Positions 8,169 to 18,095 of a stretch of 20,000 bases of DNA are shown here, one piece after another. Origin of the DNA: an uncultured virus (IMG/VR IMGVR_UViG_3300025674_000003) (lineage: Duplodnaviria; Heunggongvirae; Uroviricota; Caudoviricetes; Crassvirales); the IMG/VR virus record IMGVR_UViG_3300025674_000003; one strand, 5' to 3'. The notes under the pieces were generated by a model. That model had not been told where the DNA came from. It worked only from the letters and a program-made list of their open reading frames with translations, and searched no databases. How positions within the stretch are numbered: the first letter of the stretch is position 1; the number at the start of each line of letters is the position of its first letter. The position numbers were made by a program, and so were the translations under genes.

Positions 8169-10583
8169 TTATCTAGGGTCAAATTGTTCTAACCCGAAAC
8201 CACCTAAATTATCAAATCCAGCGGATTCAAAATCTTGAGGTAATGTATTATTTTTTCTTTGATCTATTAGTTTTGACTCTTGAGAACCTTGCATTTTTAT
8301 TCTATTGTCTTTTCTATTCTCTATTTCTTGTTCTTTTTGAGTCTCTGCGTCAGCTTTTATTTTTGCTAACTGCATATTGTATTGAAATTCCTCAGCCATC
8401 AAACCTTTCTTTATTTCTGCCTCTTGTAACATTTTCTTTATTTCTAATTGCATTTTAGAGGTTTCAATTTGTATTTCAGTTTCTGCTAAAGCTTGTTGTT
8501 TTTGCATTTCTGCTGTTATAGCAGCTTCAGAAGCTTGTGCGTTTGCTTGAGCTTGAGCTTGTATATTAGCTCTTTGGTTTTCTTGATCTTTTTTAGCTTT
8601 TTCTTTACGTTTCTGTTTTAATAAAGCATTTGCTAGTTTTATGTTTTTAACTTGTCTAATATCTATAGCATCGTCTAAGTCTATACCACCTGACTGCAAA
8701 GCTATTTGTATATTTTGCTCTAATTGAGCTTTAGCCTCTTCATCTGGTTCTAATTCTAAGAATATACCAAAATCTTGAAGATTTTTTTCTTGTAATTCTT
8801 CTAAAGTTCCTGTGTTATATGAAGATATAGAATCTATTAAAGCAGCTCTTGTTAAAGGGTAATTTAACGCGTCTGCTATTCTAAGAGCTATATTTTCACA
8901 AGATCTTAATGTTAAATATAAACCACCTTGCATAATATGTCTTAATGCAGTATTTGAATTAGCAGCAGCTAATTTTTGTAAACCTACTAACGCATCTTTA
9001 CTAGGTGTGCTAGCGTCGCTTGCTTCATTTAAACCGGTTACATCACGTATCATTTGTAAATAATACTGGTAAGTTTGAATTAGGCTTTGTATTTTAGCAC
9101 CTCCATTGCTTGTTTGAAGCTCTTGAATAGGTACTTTACCTCTATTTAAATCGCCATCTTGCGTCATAGATCTACCAACAATAGAACCTGTTTGAAAATA
9201 CATGTTTAACGCTTCAGACGCATTATAATTTGTTCCATTACCTAAATCAACTTCAGCTAAACCATCTACATCAACAAAAACACCATCAGGAACCATGCGT
9301 GATAATACTTGTTGTAACTTCAAATGTGTTAATTGTATCATATCAGCAAAACCTGTTATTCTGCTAACTGTAGACTCAATAGCGCCTTTGTACATACGTG
9401 GTGCACATATAGAGTAATTCATATTAACTTTTGTTAAATTAGAATTAGGTCTAGTCATATTTTCAGATAACCTCCAATCTAACATCATTTCATGACCAAG
9501 TATTTTTGCTCCTGTATATAAAACTTCTATACTTCTACCTACTCTTTCAAAATTATCATTTGGTTGAGGATTAAAAGTATCTGGTTTTTCTAAAGCTTTT
9601 TCTAAACCTTGATCTGTTTGTTTTATTTTAAATACTTGATTGCTGTATGTTTTATATTCAAAATATAAAACTTGAACTTGATTATATGAATCTTGTTGTG
9701 CATAGAAATTCCTAGTATAATTTGCGTCACCTGGAAATTTTTCTATTTTTTTAAGTTCTTCATCTGTTAAACCAGGAAATTGTTTTTTAAGCTCAACTAA
9801 ACTTATTGATTTAACTTCTCCAGCATAATATATATCATCAAAGTTAGGATCTTCCGTGTATGAATAAACTAAATTAGCAGGGTCAACATAATTAACAGTA
9901 ACACCGTTAGCTAAATTAAAATCTGTTTTAACAGCAGCTATACCTATTATAGTTAAATCTTGTATTAATCTTTTCTTTATTAATTCGTATTTGTTATAAG
10001 ATAAAACATTCTCTATAGCCTCTTCTTCAGCTATTTCAATTGATTGTTTATAGCTTAATTGCATATGAAGATCTAATTCTTGCTGAGATTCTGGTATATT
10101 ATTAGGATCATTGGTATTGAAAAAATTCATACCAGTAGCTTGATTAGTTGCTTCAATAATTTCTTTAGCATACATGTCTCGCATTATCGCATCTGCATAC
10201 TTTGTTCTTTGCTTTAAAGATTCAGGATCTTGAGCAAAAGCTTTAATGTCAAATATTTTTTGAGACATACCATTAACTATTATATCTACAAACTTAGGTA
10301 TAATAGGTACTGGTTTCCAGTCTAAATTTAAATAAGATAAATCGCCATTGACAGCTAATTCATCTTTGTATTTTTGTACAGGTTGTTCACCTCTTGCGTA
10401 AAGTCTTAATCTATGAAAATTTAACCAGCTATTCTGGTATCTATTACCTAAACCCCCTCTATCTCCAGAAAACCACTCTCCTTCAATAGCTCGTCCTACG
10501 GCGTAACCATAATCATAACTTTGCTTTTCTTCATCAGATACTACCTGACTAGGAAACGAACCTGCGTAATTAGTGTAAATCAT
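8169..10583 (-). CDS. Portal protein (804 aa)
   Basis: Abuts the TerL stop. Motifs LNLDWKPVPIIPKFVDIIVNG and MIRDVTGLNEA, with a long Q/A/E coiled-coil C-terminal barrel typical of podophage portals. Confidence 0.9.
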   Translation of the reverse strand: MIYTNYAGSFPSQVVSDEEKQSYDYGYAVGRAIEGEWFSGDRGGLGNRYQNSWLNFHRLRLYARGEQPVQKYKDELAVNGDLSYLNLDWKPVPIIPKFVDIIVNGMSQKIFDIKAFAQDPESLKQRTKYADAIMRDMYAKEIIEATNQATGMNFFNTNDPNNIPESQQELDLHMQLSYKQSIEIAEEEAIENVLSYNKYELIKKRLIQDLTIIGIAAVKTDFNLANGVTVNYVDPANLVYSYTEDPNFDDIYYAGEVKSISLVELKKQFPGLTDEELKKIEKFPGDANYTRNFYAQQDSYNQVQVLYFEYKTYSNQVFKIKQTDQGLEKALEKPDTFNPQPNDNFERVGRSIEVLYTGAKILGHEMMLDWRLSENMTRPNSNLTKVNMNYSICAPRMYKGAIESTVSRITGFADMIQLTHLKLQQVLSRMVPDGVFVDVDGLAEVDLGNGTNYNASEALNMYFQTGSIVGRSMTQDGDLNRGKVPIQELQTSNGGAKIQSLIQTYQYYLQMIRDVTGLNEASDASTPSKDALVGLQKLAAANSNTALRHIMQGGLYLTLRSCENIALRIADALNYPLTRAALIDSISSYNTGTLEELQEKNLQDFGIFLELEPDEEAKAQLEQNIQIALQSGGIDLDDAIDIRQVKNIKLANALLKQKRKEKAKKDQENQRANIQAQAQANAQASEAAITAEMQKQQALAETEIQIETSKMQLEIKKMLQEAEIKKGLMAEEFQYNMQLAKIKADAETQKEQEIENRKDNRIKMQGSQESKLIDQRKNNTLPQDFESAGFDNLGGFGLEQFDPR

Positions 10584-12800
10584 TTATCTTATTATTTTTG
10601 AACTAAATCCTTTATTGTCATATTTTTTAAAACCAAGGTTTTTAACTTCTAATTTTCTTTTAAAAACTGGCGTGTAAAGATTTTTATTACAAGCCATTAT
10701 TGCTAAACCTGAACTAATAGAAGCATCGTGTTTTGTTCTATCATTTATATCAAATCTAGACCAATCTTCTAAAGTTTTTTGAAAATATACGTTTCCATAA
10801 CCTTCGTCTAATTTACCTACATAATTTTCAATATAGGATTCTATAGCAGCCGCGTGAGCTTGTTTTATATCTTGACTTGAATTAGGTATTCCACCTATTT
10901 CTTTTTCTGTTACAGATAATTTCATATATACTTTATCTGGTCTATTCATAGAATAACCTCTATAACCTCTTCTTTTAAAATGATATAAAAGTCTAGGTTT
11001 ATTATTTTCTGCTAATATAGGCATTCCATAAAACACACAAGCCATAAGAACATCTTCGAAAAATATCTCAGCAGTCTGTGGTCTTGCTATGTATTCTAAA
11101 AAAAACATACTATTAGGCACATCTTCCATTGAAAACTTTGTTAATCCGTGAAGTGATCCTTTAGAACCACGCGCGTCAACAGTACCTGATATGTCATATG
11201 GATCACAACCAAAAGAGCCACAATGTTCATTTCCTGGGTATTTTAATCCATTTTTAATTATTACACGATTTTGTAAATTTAAAGGTGGAACCCAAGTTAC
11301 ACTAAATCTACCTGAATCATTAGGAACAAATAAAACCTTAGTATCTTTAACACCATTTTGCCATTGAAACGATCCTTTTGTAACAAAAGTGTTTGTTCTA
11401 AAATCTTCGTTATAATCTATTTGTTCGTATATTTTAGTTAAGTTAAATAAAGATTGTTTAGCTTCGTCTCTAAACGCATGTTGTTCTGTTCTTGGAAACT
11501 GTCTATAAAATTCATTTAAACCTTCTTGATCTTTTTTTAAACCATCAACTTCGTTTTGCCAATATTCTAGTACACCTATTTTTATTTTTCTTCCGTGCGG
11601 ACCCTCTGTATTTTCGATTGGAGTTTCGAAGACAGGTAAGCCATAAGAATCAATGTATCCTTCGTAGTTCCATTCCATAGGTATGAACAAAGAATATAAT
11701 CCTGAGCGAGTCTCTCCATTGGCGTTTCTTTCTTTGACGTTCGAATCATAATATAGTTTTTTAAAGTTATTACCACCTTTGTCAAGTGCATTACTGGTTG
11801 ATCCCATCATACACTTACCTATAATTCTACCACCTAATCTTAGCGTGGTTTTTGTAACCCTCCAGTTGTTGAGGATGTTGTTCGGCTTCTCCCATTTACC
11901 GCTTTCATCATGGACGAGGAGTTTAAGTTTCTCCCCATCGTAGGAGTTGTCACCTGTATTCTTCCAGTCGATTGTGGTGTCCAATCCCTGTAATTCGTCC
12001 TCGGTTTCGTCGTAGGCAGCGGTGAGCTTTCTACGGGTGAACTTTGAGGCTGGTACACGGTAGGCAAGCTCGGTCTTTGGGCGGTCCATACCGTCCTGGG
12101 TCGGCTTGAAAAAGAAGGGGTAATTAACCGATATGGGTACCACCTTGTCTGTGAACATCTTTTTAGCATCAGGACCGGACTTTGATAATATACCATATCT
12201 AGAGTCAGATGATATGGTTGCCAAGTTAACCACCTCTCCTGACGCCATAAAGGAAAACCCAGAACGTCTGTTCTTAAGGTAGCACAGTCCGTAACATCTA
12301 TCATCGGCTTTACAAGCTTCCCAGAAAATGAAGAATAATCTATTTGACTCCCGAAAGTCTGGTGCCCCGACATCAATCTTACTCCACTGCAAGTACATGT
12401 AATGAGTACCAGTAATATAAGTAGGAATGTCTTTGTTATAAAACCAAAAACCTTTCTCCCTACGGGTAAACTCATTATCGATGTAATCATACCACTTTTC
12501 TTTAAAATCTAGTGGATATTGTTTCCAATCAAAAGTAGATTTAATTCTATCTAATTCTTTTGGATATTCAAATTGTGTCCACTTATTGTTATCAAACTTA
12601 TATATATTTTCTTTTTTTGGTAAAGCTATTTTTAGGTTTTGTATCTCATACACTTGACCTATTTTACCAGTTTTACTTATAACTACAACATCGTGTTCTT
12701 CGTTATAACCATATTCCCAACTATTGCTTTTGTTATTTCTTTTTAAAACTTTACTTGGAATATGATCTTCTAGTATTTTATATAAAGTTTGTTTATACAT
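10584..12800 (-). CDS. terL: Terminase large subunit
   Basis: Walker A variant LKNRRSGFS, Walker B LLVHDESGKW, coupling motif GSTSN and nuclease GCDPYD. Start moved from the track's 12830 to the ATG at 12800 (MYKQTLY...), which overlaps the upstream ORF's stop. Confidence 0.93.
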   Translation of the reverse strand: MYKQTLYKILEDHIPSKVLKRNNKSNSWEYGYNEEHDVVVISKTGKIGQVYEIQNLKIALPKKENIYKFDNNKWTQFEYPKELDRIKSTFDWKQYPLDFKEKWYDYIDNEFTRREKGFWFYNKDIPTYITGTHYMYLQWSKIDVGAPDFRESNRLFFIFWEACKADDRCYGLCYLKNRRSGFSFMASGEVVNLATISSDSRYGILSKSGPDAKKMFTDKVVPISVNYPFFFKPTQDGMDRPKTELAYRVPASKFTRRKLTAAYDETEDELQGLDTTIDWKNTGDNSYDGEKLKLLVHDESGKWEKPNNILNNWRVTKTTLRLGGRIIGKCMMGSTSNALDKGGNNFKKLYYDSNVKERNANGETRSGLYSLFIPMEWNYEGYIDSYGLPVFETPIENTEGPHGRKIKIGVLEYWQNEVDGLKKDQEGLNEFYRQFPRTEQHAFRDEAKQSLFNLTKIYEQIDYNEDFRTNTFVTKGSFQWQNGVKDTKVLFVPNDSGRFSVTWVPPLNLQNRVIIKNGLKYPGNEHCGSFGCDPYDISGTVDARGSKGSLHGLTKFSMEDVPNSMFFLEYIARPQTAEIFFEDVLMACVFYGMPILAENNKPRLLYHFKRRGYRGYSMNRPDKVYMKLSVTEKEIGGIPNSSQDIKQAHAAAIESYIENYVGKLDEGYGNVYFQKTLEDWSRFDINDRTKHDASISSGLAIMACNKNLYTPVFKRKLEVKNLGFKKYDNKGFSSKIIR
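11840..12490 (-). CDS. Candidate overprinted gene in the +1 frame of terL; lipoprotein-like N-terminus, S/T/P/R-rich C-terminus
   Basis: 216 stop-free codons from an ATG (alternative ATG at 12475), coinciding with a local GC rise and non-native TerL synonymous codons. N-terminus RKVFGFITKTFLLILLVLITCTC. Confidence 0.6.
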   Translation of the reverse strand: MITSIMSLPVGRKVFGFITKTFLLILLVLITCTCSGVRLMSGHQTFGSQIDYSSFSGKLVKPMIDVTDCATLRTDVLGFPLWRQERWLTWQPYHLTLDMVYYQSPVLMLKRCSQTRWYPYRLITPSFSSRPRTVWTAQRPSLPTVYQPQSSPVESSPLPTTKPRTNYRDWTPQSTGRIQVTTPTMGRNLNSSSMMKAVNGRSRTTSSTTGGLQKPR

Positions 12801-13074
12801 TTTTAGATCTACCTTCAGCAAAACCAGCAAAAGTTCTTTCTTTTTTAACTTCTTTTGGTTTTTCGTTTAACATATCCTCTTCTTCTTGTAAACGTTGTAA
12901 TATTTCAAAAGCATCAAATATTGCTAATTTTTTTGTTGCTGCAGCATTTTTAAGTCTGTCTGCAGATATATCATCGTCTGAATCTACAATAGGTTCTTTA
13001 GCCACCTTTATAAGCTCTTCAACAGCTACGCGCCCAGCTTGGATTATATTCTTCTTCGTTTCCTTTGTGCTCAT
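12793..13074 (-). CDS. Small helical protein immediately upstream of terL, candidate terminase small subunit (93 aa)
   Basis: Overlaps the terL start and is helical and charged. Assignment is by position only. Confidence 0.5.
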   Translation of the reverse strand: MSTKETKKNIIQAGRVAVEELIKVAKEPIVDSDDDISADRLKNAAATKKLAIFDAFEILQRLQEEEDMLNEKPKEVKKERTFAGFAEGRSKNV

Positions 13075-13624
13075 ATTTAATTACAATATCATTTGATTTC
13101 ATACAATAAACTCTTTCATTTTCAATAATAAAATCCCATTCGCTGTTAGGTGTAAAACCCACAACATCACCAGGATTAATATTAAGCGCTTCTAATGAGT
13201 TATTACTATATTTTAGTATACCTATAAGGGCTTGTTCTTTTTTGTTGCTTAATTTATCTTTATTTATTATCGGTTTAACAAAACATCTATCACCAAACGA
13301 GTGATAACCATTATTGTTTTTATAAAGATATATTTGATCTAAGCTACAAAAATACAAATCATTTTTAAAATATGATCTGCTTTTTTTCTTAACACCTTTC
13401 ATACCGTAAAATGTTCTAAACACATTTTGATGTACTATTATTAAATCACCTTTTTTTATAGGTGTTTTAAAAGCTTTAGGTGTTTCTATAACCTCGGCTA
13501 TTCTATTAACAAACTTCCAGTTTTCAACCTTAGTATTTAATACTAATTCTTTATCATCTACTTTTATGCTATTAGAATATTCTTTACCAAATGGTTTTAC
13601 TATAAAATCATATAGACTTTTCAT
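13019..13624 (-). CDS. GroES/Cpn10-like co-chaperonin, apparently two tandem domains (201 aa)
   Basis: Second half FGDRCFVKP...GILKY...INPGDVVGF...FIIENERVYCMKSNDIV mirrors GroES (PLGDRVLVK...VKVGDKVLF...DGEEYLIM.E.DI). First half FIVKP...AEVIETP...IKKGDLIIVH repeats the pattern. Confidence 0.65.
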   Translation of the reverse strand: MKSLYDFIVKPFGKEYSNSIKVDDKELVLNTKVENWKFVNRIAEVIETPKAFKTPIKKGDLIIVHQNVFRTFYGMKGVKKKSRSYFKNDLYFCSLDQIYLYKNNNGYHSFGDRCFVKPIINKDKLSNKKEQALIGILKYSNNSLEALNINPGDVVGFTPNSEWDFIIENERVYCMKSNDIVIKYEHKGNEEEYNPSWARSC

Positions 13625-14688: not shown

Positions 14689-15153
14689 TTATTTTTTACT
14701 TATTGTTTTAAATTTTTCTGCACCTCGTGAACCAAAATAAGCCACGTAAACTGTAATTAAAAGAGATTTTAATAGATCAACCCAACCGCCATCAACATCA
14801 AACTGTATATTAGAGCTTTCAAGAACTATTAAAATTATTAAAGATATAGTTAAAAATATAAGAGTCATAGGGCGTGTGTTTTTAGACAACCATGAATCTG
14901 ATTTCATATCACTATCCCAACGCTTAGATATTTCTTGCATTTCTACCATGTCTTGCTCTAATAACTTTAAAGCTTTTTCTTTATCTTCTGGTGGTAAAAT
15001 TACAGGATCTTCTTTTTTTATTAAGTTTTTAACTACACCTAATAAGCCTTGATCTGGTAAAACATCAGATATACCATCAACTAGCTTAGGCGCAGTTCCT
15101 AATAAAAACTGACCGACTTTTGTATCTTTAAACTTCTTTTTATTATCTGGCAT
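14689..15153 (-). CDS. Holin, GTA_holin_3TM-like family (154 aa)
   Basis: Motifs RWDSDMKSDSWLSKNTRP, then a TM helix, a second TM helix and YFGSRGAEK, characteristic of this holin family. Confidence 0.75.
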   Translation of the reverse strand: MPDNKKKFKDTKVGQFLLGTAPKLVDGISDVLPDQGLLGVVKNLIKKEDPVILPPEDKEKALKLLEQDMVEMQEISKRWDSDMKSDSWLSKNTRPMTLIFLTISLIILIVLESSNIQFDVDGGWVDLLKSLLITVYVAYFGSRGAEKFKTISKK

Positions 15154-15593
15154 TATTTTTTAATTACCTTTAGTATTGATTGATAAATTTTATTTATATC
15201 GAATGTATTTTTTGCTAAAGATACAGAATTTTTATTTATATCTTCGTAAGCTTTTACAGACGACTTACTAAGTTTTAAATGAGCAGCGTGTGATTTATTT
15301 ATTAAATTAATATTCTCAACAGCTTTCTGTATTTTATTAGCGTATTCTTTTTGAGCTTTAACTATTTCACTAGTGTCATAAGGTTCATAAATTACACGCG
15401 AGTTATCGTTTGTATCTTTAGTTGTCTCGAATGCAGAATAAGCAAAAACAATAGCTTCTGTTATCATACCTATTGTTAATAATAATGAGCCATATGGCCA
15501 GTGTTGAATTTTAGCAAGAGCTCCTAAAATAACGACTGCAGCTCCGAGCCCGTAGAGCATATTAGTAAAGTCTAATTTTAAATTTTTTAACAT
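15153..15593 (-). CDS. gldL: GldL/PorL-like protein (gliding motility / type IX secretion motor stator subunit homologue), 146 aa
   Basis: NMLYGLGAAVVILGALAKIQHW...LLTIGMITEAIVFAYSAFE closely matches the two-TM N-terminus of GldL as recalled (NFAYGMGAAVVIVGALFKITH...IGLLTEALIFALSAFE). A coiled coil follows, then SLAKNTFDINKIYQSIL, resembling the GldL terminal helix (..N..SLN.VYGGML). Confidence 0.9.
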   Translation of the reverse strand: MLKNLKLDFTNMLYGLGAAVVILGALAKIQHWPYGSLLLTIGMITEAIVFAYSAFETTKDTNDNSRVIYEPYDTSEIVKAQKEYANKIQKAVENINLINKSHAAHLKLSKSSVKAYEDINKNSVSLAKNTFDINKIYQSILKVIKK

Positions 15594-15663: not shown

Positions 15664-17625
15664 TTACTTCTTTTTATCTCCACTAAAAACCATTTTACTA
15701 CCAAATAAACCACCTGTAACAGCTGGTAATTTATTCATTGATTTAGCTAAAGAAGAAAAATTACTTTTAGATTTATCCATAAAATCAAAAATTCTAGTAC
15801 CACTTACATTTACATCTTTACCATCGCTTTTTAACACGGCTTGAGTTACTGGATTTTTATCAAAATAATTTTTAGCTTTAGATAAAATCTGTGGAGTTAT
15901 TTTATCATAAGGATTTTTTATAAAACCTTGATCAAGCAAAGATTGTCTTAATTCTCCCGCAAAAGCCCTAGGCTCCATATTTCCACTTCCTCCATATTTA
16001 AAATAATCGTAATCTATGTCTGATGCTGGTTGATTTGCTAAATGATCTTGAAATCGTGAGTCTGCTGCTTTGTGATTTTTAGCAAAATCATCGCTATGAA
16101 CATTTAGATTATCTCTTGCAGATAGCAGATCATCATATTTTTTGTTATAATCTAAAACCTCTTTGCTAGGTTTAATAGCACTAGATAACTCTCTGTCAAG
16201 AGGCGTTGTTCTACCAACTTGAAAACCGTGTTGCTGTTCGTGAGCATAGATTGTTTTTGGTTTAGCTATATTTTTATCTCCTAAAATAAAATTACCTTTA
16301 TTTAATTGAGAGGCATTTTGAACGCCTTGTAATGAAAATCTATCAACATCATTAGTTTTTTTAAAACCACCAAAAGTAGCATTGGAATCTAAATATTCTC
16401 TAGGAACAGAATTATATAATATGTCTTTTGCTTCACTGTAATTTAATTTCCCTCCTTTTATAGCCTCAGCTGCCCTTTCATTTAAATTAGGTTTAGACAT
16501 TTCTTGAATTCTAAAATTAACATTTTTTTGCGCTTGTTCAGCTAAGTCAGCATCAAATAGTTTTTTTGTTTTTGTGCCAAGACCGCCTAAAAAGTTTTGT
16601 TCAATTTCTAAAAATTCATTACCAGGTGTTTGTTTTCTTATAAATGGATGGGCGTGTGCTTCAGGGATTTGCATTGTTTTTCTTAATTTTTCCATTTCAC
16701 CCTGTAAATAACCTAACTCTTGATCATATAATCTTTTTTGACCTTCAGGTGTATTTAATCGCTCCATTGTTTTTAATCTTTCAAATTTACTAACCTCAGC
16801 GTTTTTACTTAAATCTTCAAGAGTATTATACATAGATTCTCTAGTTTTTGGATTAAATCTTCCAAATATACCTGGTGATTCTGGTAATTTACTAGCCGCA
16901 CTAGCAGCTTCGTCTCCTTTTGCAGCCAAACTATAAACTAAATCATCTGATTTGTTTGCTAGTCCTTTTGCTAATTTAGCTCCTTTTGCACCTTTAGTTA
17001 ATAATCCAGCTCCAAAGAGTAAATTGGCTGGATCTGCTACTATATCCATAGCTGTATTTAAAGAACCTCCTAAATCCCATCCAGGTTTATCTTCAAAACC
17101 TATTGTTTCAGATGGTAGTCTTTGTGATCCAGGTGTAAGAGCGTTTGCAAAATTATAAGGATTTCCTCTCAAAGCTTCTATACCTTCAACCGCAAGTGAT
17201 TGAGGAGCTTGAAGTGTTGTCATTACCATGGATGCAGGCTGTTCTGCTAATATACCTGTTACCATATCCATAGCATCACCTGCTAAACCTTCTCTAGTTT
17301 GAGCTCTTCTTCTAACACCTCTACCAATTGCCCCTGAGTCGTTAAAATATTCTTTTTGTTGATCAGAAAGTTCATCAAATAAAGGATATTGATTATAATC
17401 TACATCTGATCTTACTACTACTTCATCAAGATTTGGTCTATGTATCGAACCTTCTCCAAAGTATTTAGCATATTCCGCATCTGACATACCAGAATCGCTT
17501 TGTGTAGTATAAACTAAATCATCAACTATTTGTTGACCATCTTTTTTGCTATGAGGTTTGCCTTCATGCATTTTAACAGGACTAGAACTTCTTAGTTTTC
17601 CGAAATAATTTTTTTTAAGCCCCAT
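15664..17625 (-). CDS. Probable internal virion (cargo/ejection) protein with a C-terminal zincin-like HExxH motif (653 aa)
   Basis: YAHEQQHG (16228-16242) followed by MEPRAF. Also a glycine-rich hydrophobic segment DPANLLFGAGLLTKGAKGAK, an LDEVVV motif and N-terminal SSPVK. Confidence 0.5.
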   Translation of the reverse strand: MGLKKNYFGKLRSSSPVKMHEGKPHSKKDGQQIVDDLVYTTQSDSGMSDAEYAKYFGEGSIHRPNLDEVVVRSDVDYNQYPLFDELSDQQKEYFNDSGAIGRGVRRRAQTREGLAGDAMDMVTGILAEQPASMVMTTLQAPQSLAVEGIEALRGNPYNFANALTPGSQRLPSETIGFEDKPGWDLGGSLNTAMDIVADPANLLFGAGLLTKGAKGAKLAKGLANKSDDLVYSLAAKGDEAASAASKLPESPGIFGRFNPKTRESMYNTLEDLSKNAEVSKFERLKTMERLNTPEGQKRLYDQELGYLQGEMEKLRKTMQIPEAHAHPFIRKQTPGNEFLEIEQNFLGGLGTKTKKLFDADLAEQAQKNVNFRIQEMSKPNLNERAAEAIKGGKLNYSEAKDILYNSVPREYLDSNATFGGFKKTNDVDRFSLQGVQNASQLNKGNFILGDKNIAKPKTIYAHEQQHGFQVGRTTPLDRELSSAIKPSKEVLDYNKKYDDLLSARDNLNVHSDDFAKNHKAADSRFQDHLANQPASDIDYDYFKYGGSGNMEPRAFAGELRQSLLDQGFIKNPYDKITPQILSKAKNYFDKNPVTQAVLKSDGKDVNVSGTRIFDFMDKSKSNFSSLAKSMNKLPAVTGGLFGSKMVFSGDKKK

Positions 17626-17627
17626 AA

Positions 17628-18095
17628 TTAAGAATTTTTAGTTTTTTGATAAGCTTCTTTTTCCCAAGGTAAATTTTTTGCACCTTCATTCATATCGTCT
17701 CTTGAATATGTTTTACCTTCCCAATAAACATTGTCGTCATCATAACTTAGCCTACCATCTTTTATTTGTTTAATATGCACCATTTCATGATCTATGACAT
17801 CTTGCTTTTGTTTTGGATCTTTAATGTCTTTATTTATAAGTATACTACCATTGTTAGTAGCCATACCTAAAGTATCATCACCCATATCTACGTGCATTAT
17901 AGGTGTATTGGAATTTTCTTCATTATATGGTGATCCTTTCATTTTAAAACCCATTTTTAAAGGAGAAGTTCTTTTACTTTTAGCTGCTTTTAAAGAAGCG
18001 TCATTTCCAGTTCCAGCGCCAGATCTTTTTCTTGCTTTGTTCCACTCAGGACTATGCATTAAAGAACTCCAACAGTGTTTTATTGGTGAACCCAT
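17628..18095 (-). CDS. Small zincin-like metalloprotease (155 aa)
   Basis: LGMA...ILIN...VIDHEMVHIKQ (HExxH at 17775-17789) and a downstream LPWEKEAY third-ligand motif. Confidence 0.7.
   Translation of the reverse strand: MGSPIKHCWSSLMHSPEWNKARKRSGAGTGNDASLKAAKSKRTSPLKMGFKMKGSPYNEENSNTPIMHVDMGDDTLGMATNNGSILINKDIKDPKQKQDVIDHEMVHIKQIKDGRLSYDDDNVYWEGKTYSRDDMNEGAKNLPWEKEAYQKTKNS

Follow-up and report, generated by a model that had tools for sequence, protein, structure and literature searches.

A Probable Hidden Gene within Phage terL and Its Mutual Exclusion with a Standalone Lipoprotein Gene

Introduction

The window analysed here, a stretch of 20,000 nucleotides from an uncultured aquatic phage (Crassvirales; IMG/VR record IMGVR_UViG_3300025674_000003), raises the question of what a long open reading frame (ORF) is doing inside a highly conserved phage enzyme. 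On its minus strand lies terL, the gene for the terminase large subunit (10584..12800; 738 aa from the ATG at 12800; phrog_6681, E 8.5e-163), which is the host frame of an overprinted ORF of 216 codons on the same strand (11840..12490), read from an ATG in the +1 frame over TerL codons 104–320. A first-pass annotation had taken this ORF for a real nested gene encoding a membrane-targeted, Cys-bearing protein, for example an o-spanin-like lysis factor. Sequence comparison strongly supports such a nested gene, and it links the product to the phage's envelope functions indirectly, through the new observation that the hidden ORF and a standalone lipoprotein gene, LP1, are mutually exclusive. Our overall reading, towards which we lean without great confidence, is that a membrane-anchored protein, born de novo by overprinting, took the place of LP1 in an envelope module whose probable purpose is lysis.

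Openness of the Hidden Frame and Selection on Its Product

The ORF is present as claimed, and the GC counts given for it proved exact on recount (34/60 at 12001–12060, 35/60 at 12061–12120, and 14/60 at 12541–12600); the TerL codons CTT-AAA-CTC-CTC-GTC and, in the hidden frame, the stretch FLLILLVLI with Cys32 and Cys34 were also found. The ORF showed a GC content of 44.7%, versus 31.1% and 24.8% in the remaining parts of terL, and it forms the sole GC island (>42% in 400-nt windows) across the 56-kb record. The +1 frame of such a gene should normally be rich in stops, as the annotation had stated: under the codon usage found elsewhere in terL, 12.2 stops are expected over codons 104–319 and none is present (p = 4.5e-10, given TerL and that codon usage), a probability that is still 2.4e-4 with the codon usage taken from the ORF region itself. 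In the +1 and +2 frames of five further long genes from the window, the longest run without a stop measured 50 codons. Contigs from RNA libraries match the ORF region exactly, such contigs carrying no expression level, strand or start, and promoter-like sites were found at chance level (11 vs. 8.5).

Analysis of the 80 best terL loci of IMG/VR, scored as open when no +1 stop fell over TerL codons 110–255, revealed 57 open, 22 closed, and one partial frame, the open members having a median DNA identity of ~77% both inside and outside the ORF region. The frame thus stays open in relatives, where the annotation had considered that frequent stops might appear. Of 85 terL genes at a greater distance, from the sister group and from cultured phages (a set without the Gundel terL, L166), not one was open, even those with a GC content at third codon positions (GC3) of 0.63–0.67. 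The frame is thus not kept open in GC-rich sister-group terL genes, which speaks against the higher-GC donor that had been thought of as a source. For residue counts, near-copies were removed, leaving 45 open and 20 closed sequences. In addition, a second sample of 120 loci was chosen solely for missing Thr-Cys codons; all 76 scorable ones were closed, with stops in codons 146–255 in 72 of them and in codons 110–144 in the other four. A shorter stop-poor +1 stretch at TerL codons 339–420 (window ~11540–11790), with a 69-aa ORF at 11582–11791, may reflect a constraint on TerL or an element in the RNA, and GC3 is raised at TerL codons 361–380 in open and closed classes alike.

The codon choices made within the ORF follow the residue that they create in the hidden frame. 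T-ending NCN codons, which encode Thr, Pro, Ala, or Ser in TerL and make Leu in +1, reach a share of 0.91–0.93 in the leader of the ORF and ~0.5 outside, whereas the same Leu-making ending drops down to 0.04–0.07 in the tail (vs. ~0.5 elsewhere), with no such fall for the Val-making T ending. Arg is preferred over Lys in the tail (G-ending share of 0.59 vs. 0.12), and in the open class, Leu and Val are fixed across the hydrophobic segment while the first positions of TerL vary. The shift, thus, tracks the +1 residue and not GC, so a by-product of a GC-rich donor is disfavoured. Such a by-product, or an RNA or DNA element, would be the explanation if no second protein existed. In its favour, segment 101–325 of the window's TerL is nearer to L003/L006 (85–93% in most windows) than its flanks are, from which we conclude that this block of terL has recombined; however, the failure of any of the 85 distant genes to be open, the codon shift, a three-base periodicity of conservation, and folding z-scores of −0.8 to +0.2 in the open class, which give no signal of the RNA structure suggested as an alternative, make it very improbable.

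Homologues found in protein databases were +1-frame products of terL, with 93% of their substitutions fitting the second base of TerL versus 34% by chance. Some of these entries are chimeras of TerL and the +1 frame, and 4 of 94 open sequences have no ATG at codon 104, as would suit a frame reached by programmed frameshifting to give a TerL fusion. Yet, the chimera junctions lie at differing places, as sequencing errors would give, the upstream stops vary (codons 58–109), and all four sequences without the ATG belong to the seven whose tails are most eroded, so that frameshifting is scarcely credible. The +1 frame is, in our opinion, almost certainly a protein-coding gene kept by selection.

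Family searches with the ORF protein revealed nothing in Pfam, PHROGs, or NCBIfam, and the Atlas hits, at 0.80, were below lead level. The features of an overprinted gene were found together: openness beyond chance, selection on the second protein, a range narrower than that of terL, and no free-standing homologue. The hidden gene occurs in a single clade of podovirus-like phages of flavobacteria and has no free-standing homologue, from which we conclude that it arose by overprinting. Within the clade, the open and closed states were scattered over a tree of C-terminal TerL (13 changes), and classes were not separated by N-terminal TerL either (13 changes, compared with 17.3 when shuffled; trees were made with quick and FastTree methods). 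Truncated hidden genes (87, 116, and ~137 codons) keeping the leader and the Cys were seen in L060, L061, G081, G110, G147, and G162, and they would represent recombinants or decay stages. The nearest cultured relatives of the window's TerL come from phages of Flavobacterium, Cellulophaga, Maribacter, and Tenacibaculum (32–45% identity). Identity was 45% to an elemovirus TerL and 63.5% to MW202828. Because of these cultured relatives, the host of the window phage is probably a flavobacterium, with which a GldL-like gene in the window agrees.

Anatomy of the Hidden Protein

The start codon (ATG, 12488..12490, minus strand, as are all the following parts) lies inside TerL Trp103-Tyr104-Asp105, behind an A-rich, unstructured leader with A at −6, −12, and −13 and G at −3. 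This ATG was found in 41/45 open versus 12/20 closed sequences (Fisher p 0.005) and in 90/94 of a larger open set. Among 35 gene starts of the phage, position −3 was A in 24 and G in 2, and F. johnsoniae favours A there (PMC6847099); because of its G at −3, the hidden gene is likely to be weakly expressed. The annotation had pointed to the ATG at 12475, which indeed has A at −3, but Met occurs there in only 12/45 open relatives (7/45 one column before), and we do not retain it as the start.

The product begins with a basic n-region (residues 1–21, 12428..12490), where a predicted helix starts and where third-position entropy (0.96 open vs. 0.89 closed) indicates little class-specific selection. 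In the hydrophobic segment that follows (residues 22–31, 12398..12427), codon bias is accompanied by a third-position entropy of 0.39 in open versus 0.85 in closed sequences, with the first position free. Next come Cys32-Thr33-Cys34 (12389..12397), the leader ending in Cys-Thr-Cys-Ser-Gly. Cys32 is forced by TerL Met135, whereas Cys34, the selected cysteine and candidate lipid acceptor, was present in 45/45 open versus 5/20 closed sequences, via two TerL codons (TTG and CTG), and Thr33 was present in 45/45 versus 4/20. Start, hydrophobic stretch, and Cys, whose conservation had been proposed as a check, are, therefore, kept. The Trp/Tyr/Pro-rich middle and the disordered Ser/Thr/Pro/Arg-rich tail were both found as described. 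The middle (residues 35–127, 12110..12388) is rich in Trp, Tyr, and Pro in residues 89–127 and unstructured in the model, and the basic tail (residues 128–216, 11843..12109; net charge +11) is the core of the GC island and varies in length among relatives, the first stop falling at TerL codon 259–322. After Cys34, the protein carries a net charge of +15. An AlphaFold2 model showed a single helix (residues 9–40) followed by disorder (mean pLDDT 42.7). The tail appears to be selected for composition and openness, not for sequence.

Regarding export by the Sec pathway with signal peptidase II, the basic n-region, the hydrophobic h-region, and an invariant Cys followed by small residues were found, Ser-Gly after the Cys being among the commonest residues in a Bacteroidota host sample; a Ser, Gly, or Ala at −1 and a Cys within ~30 residues were not. 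As TerL Tyr136 permits Thr or Ile only at −1 and Thr is always chosen, there may be a pressure towards a small residue at this position. In E. coli Lpp, Thr at −1 reportedly slows lipidation and blocks cleavage, and slow lipidation without cleavage at Cys34 is possible. Altogether, the hidden protein is very likely exported and membrane-anchored.

Mutual Exclusion with a Standalone Lipoprotein

A lipobox scan of 14 records detected LP1, a lipoprotein of 145 aa, in two of them, of which one has a closed frame and the other a truncated ORF; it was in none of six open ones, in which no other o-spanin candidate appeared either. LP1 has a canonical lipobox and a short leader; its middle is rich in Trp, Tyr, and Pro, and its basic tail in Ser, Thr, Pro, and Asn. 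Its net charge is +8, and its layout is like that of the hidden protein. The terL region is included in 22 of 26 records with LP1, and in every one of these, the frame is closed; in two LP1 carriers, the hidden gene keeps its leader but stops at 87 aa. We then used an anchored set of 80 contigs containing the gene of a transmembrane (TM)-coiled-coil protein (query from an LP1 carrier), which were chosen on neither trait. In the 61 scorable contigs, LP1 was present in 0/42 open (28 seen in full, 14 only in part) versus 15/19 closed (Fisher 5.5e-11), and a search of the whole records of the open set, in which the positive controls were recovered, found no LP1. The intact hidden gene and LP1 are, thus, anti-correlated across the clade.

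This pattern was also followed on a tree of C-terminal TerL that included the anchored set, eight further LP1 carriers, and the window, minus one row with a short C-terminus. Each trait changed 14 times on it, and of 12 independent pairs, 10.3 went the same way and none the opposite way (sign p ~0.002). The ORF (G000:C1:17705) and the TM-coiled-coil gene (G000:C1:44248) are ~26 kb apart, and the traits vary together across the stretch between the two genes, which is reshuffled. It is likely, on this comparative evidence, that the hidden protein stands in for LP1. The most divergent members of the tree (72–75% identity) are closed, and 5/6 of them carry LP1, which suggests LP1 as the older state on a tree that is midpoint-rooted only.

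The genes around LP1 give a clue to the job in question. A cassette outside the window (G000:C1:44248-46429) encodes the TM-coiled-coil protein, an exported thioredoxin-like protein, an outer-membrane-barrel-like protein, and an M15 endolysin; it is conserved across the clade, with a different gene order in the window's own record. LP1 was located between the barrel and TM-coiled-coil genes in 13/15 carriers, upstream of the thioredoxin-like and endolysin genes, and in 12/15, it overlaps the start of the TM-coiled-coil gene; the barrel and TM-coiled-coil genes abut in 39/42 open contigs. The coiled-coil domain (~60 aa) is acidic, with a net charge of −6 to −8. The thioredoxin-like gene was rejected as LP1's alternative, being present in both classes. 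The annotation had seen no spanin near the holin, and the candidate partner genes are indeed not there but ~26 kb away, beside the endolysin. Two larger phages (~115 kb) with the same cassette have longer lipoproteins (237–249 aa; L625:3279-3989, L633:2048-2794) near the barrel gene, sharing the Trp/Tyr-rich and basic-tail layout, and a sister-group phage encodes a lipoprotein of 156 aa that has a membrane segment at its C-terminus, in the layout of a u-spanin (G048:C1:45268, minus).

We are inclined, if only slightly, to see lysis as the job shared by the hidden protein and LP1. The two could be interchangeable in another task, such as excluding superinfecting phages, masking a receptor, or assembling the barrel that the phage encodes, and the mutual exclusion would fit this equally. 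Known spanin systems need neither an outer-membrane barrel nor an exported thioredoxin-like protein, LP1 follows the endolysin in 2/15 carriers, its distant relative LP2 is encoded on the opposite strand, ~5 kb away from the cassette, and a presence/absence polymorphism suits a gene facing the host or a competitor. However, the overlap of LP1 with the TM-coiled-coil gene, its company with the endolysin, and the want of another o-spanin candidate in the six open genomes argue for lysis, and we consider a non-lytic task unlikely.

Several results weigh against the replacement of LP1 by an exported hidden protein. At the gene level, the start has a G at −3 that is rare in this genome (2/35 starts), and when pairs were chosen on identity outside the region, synonymous variation was only modestly suppressed (0.149 in codons 125–145 vs. 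0.18–0.23) and not at all in the tail, the stronger suppression coming from a biased choice of pairs inside the region; this part of the proposed check was, thus, borne out only in part. As for lipidation, among 155 Bacteroidota candidates, which are pattern-based and not curated lipoproteins, the −1 residue was Ser, Gly, or Ala in 123 and Thr in 5, making the Thr of the ORF non-canonical; these five read like signal peptidase I leaders, none of the 35 Flavobacteriales candidates had Thr at −1, and only 6/155 had their Cys at residue 30 or later. Regarding the exclusion, 14 open contigs were partial, and the TM-coiled-coil gene tree, on which the traits cluster, yielded only four independent pairs, without significance. 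No homology was found between the ORF and the LP proteins (HHalign probability 3%, no shared sequence beyond the leader), and a short beta-like segment conserved in the LP proteins has no counterpart in the ORF. The closed records in which no LP was found are G110 (completeness 77%; its ORF ends at 87 aa), G157 (completeness 53%), G051, G052, and G054; four of the five are incomplete, and the near-complete G051 also has no match to cassette genes. Finally, among 43 carriers of LP2, 12 hold this terL, and nine of these are open and three truncated, so the exclusion is not absolute for the wider LP family.

LP2, first met in a closed complete record, occurs at four or more places on the tree, and with both subfamilies counted, the anchored set gives 1/42 open versus 17/19 closed. 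In LP2 carriers, tail GC3 was 0.35 (other open 0.59, closed 0.12), and the tail share of Ile, Leu, Met, and Phe was 0.28 (other open 0.14, closed 0.36). Such erosion fits a weakening of selection after a standalone lipoprotein has become available, a lineage effect being also possible. A search for LP proteins in the window's own genome gave no match. Neither LP1 nor LP2 fell into a Pfam, PHROG, or NCBIfam family over the cut-off, the Atlas returning viral clusters, and LP1, LP2, the TM-coiled-coil protein, and the barrel had no match among cultured phage records.

The anti-correlation could also be the consequence of host lineage, ecotype, or incompatibility, with the real hidden gene having a role of its own; its product might, e.g., stay uncleaved in the inner membrane as an anchor and hold DNA with its Arg-rich tail on the cytoplasmic side while packaging proceeds. 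The atypical Thr at −1, the preference for Arg over Lys in the tail, the co-occurrence of LP2 with open frames, a holin type partly tied to class (type 2 in 11/13 closed), and the clustering of the traits on the TM-coiled-coil tree agree with this, yet we find it quite unlikely in view of the co-variation across the reshuffled region, the lack of sorting of N-terminal TerL, and the matching layouts of LP1 and the ORF; moreover, a plain anchor needs no invariant Cys.

Genomic Neighbourhood

terL is followed by the portal gene (8169..10583, minus; phrog_6547, E 1.8e-142), and directly upstream of it, a 93-aa gene (12793..13074, minus) is a terS candidate by position only, without a family hit over the cut-off. 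Genes read from their sequence as GroEL-like and GroES-like were found at G000:C1:6268-8065 and window 13019-13624, with a second GroES-like gene before terL. A holin-like gene (14689..15153, minus; phrog_3427, E 1.3e-17) represents one of two types (~37% identical) segregating in the clade, closed members having mostly type 2 (11/13) and open ones both. Beside it, the GldL-like gene (15153..15593, minus) encodes the N-terminal two-helix domain of GldL (PF22827, E 1.8e-23) and a short C-terminus; no relative of its product was found in genome contigs, and it could interfere with the gliding/T9SS motor of the host. As a partner of the ORF, this gene was rejected, since it was found in 1/50 related records. 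Two genes with HExxH motifs (15664-17625 and 17628-18095, minus; 653 and 155 aa) have no family names, and the longer one is variable among relatives.

Discussion

The preferred reading, in which the overprinted protein replaced LP1, can be set out as a chain of steps. Translation would start on the terL mRNA at the ATG at 12490, and the leader would insert the protein in the inner membrane with its N-terminus inside. Cys34 would then receive a lipid or form a disulphide. The rest of the protein, which is basic, disordered, and rich in Trp, Tyr, and Pro, would lie in the periplasm and there do LP1's job within the module of barrel, TM-coiled-coil, thioredoxin-like, and endolysin proteins. Most likely, it would assist in opening the outer membrane during lysis, pairing, as a long basic protein, with the coiled-coil protein, which is short and acidic; such a pair would suit a spanin-like bridge across the periplasm. 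At least ~155 codons are kept open and Leu-poor, and we propose that a long basic bridge partner would need them. More tentatively, the gene that overprints the ATPase core of TerL may have taken over the lipoprotein part of an undescribed outer-membrane lysis system made up of a barrel, an acidic TM-coiled-coil protein, a thioredoxin-like protein, and a basic disordered lipoprotein, in which the two solutions still interchange and the hidden gene decays wherever a standalone lipoprotein is regained.

De novo genes seldom carry a clue to their function, and here, the distribution names LP1 as a candidate predecessor. If the reading is true, a new gene would need only a composition and an anchor, and not a fold, to take the place of an older one, and this within an enzyme that ranks among the most conserved of phages; it would point to how Bacteroidota phages without spanins may cross the outer membrane, and the codon usage and trees of terL in this clade would be distorted by the second gene.

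No description of a nested gene in this terL or of flavobacterial spanins was found in the literature listings covered, which took in few subscription journals. In T7-family phages, genes 19.2 and 19.3 are also annotated wholly within terminase gene 19; according to the table rows of PMC4925675, they encode only 41–56 aa with no export signal or function, and in an unrelated phage family, unlike the hidden ORF with its 216 aa and strong selection. LP1 and LP2 share with the hidden protein the leader with its Cys, the Trp/Tyr/Pro-rich middle, the basic tail, a similar size, and a complementary distribution, and they differ from it in having a canonical lipobox, a short leader, free-standing genes, and no sequence homology with the ORF. 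T5 Llp and phi80/N15 Cor are phage exclusion lipoproteins; like the hidden protein, they are envelope lipoproteins, at least in prospect for the latter, that phages encode and that are patchy in distribution, and unlike it, small, folded, and free-standing, with no similarity detected in the family searches.

Further parallels are lambda Rz1 and T7 gp18.7, which, according to PMC6139136, also come from out-of-frame nested genes on the same strand and have a leader ending in Cys, a Pro-rich sequence, no C-terminal membrane segment, and a role in outer-membrane disruption, which would be possible for the hidden protein too. Measured against the o-spanin lipobox [LVI][ASTVI][GAS]C, the ORF has T-C-T-C at −3 to +1, no i-spanin gene embeds, overlaps, or adjoins it, and its single hydrophobic segment is N-terminal, with no C-terminal transmembrane segment as in u-spanins of the T1 gp11 type; for these reasons, we do not file it as a spanin, and the proposed link to the envelope and lysis stands indirectly, through LP1, whereas the Rz1-type o-spanin does not (Thr at −1, Cys at 34, no i-spanin at the locus). 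The hidden protein may nevertheless work like a spanin. It differs from Rz1 and gp18.7 in a Thr at −1 and a disordered basic domain of ~180 aa, in lying ~26 kb from its candidate partner, the widest separation given in PMC6139136 being ~1 kb, and in being embedded in terL and not in an i-spanin gene, where it is polymorphic and swapped for a standalone lipoprotein.

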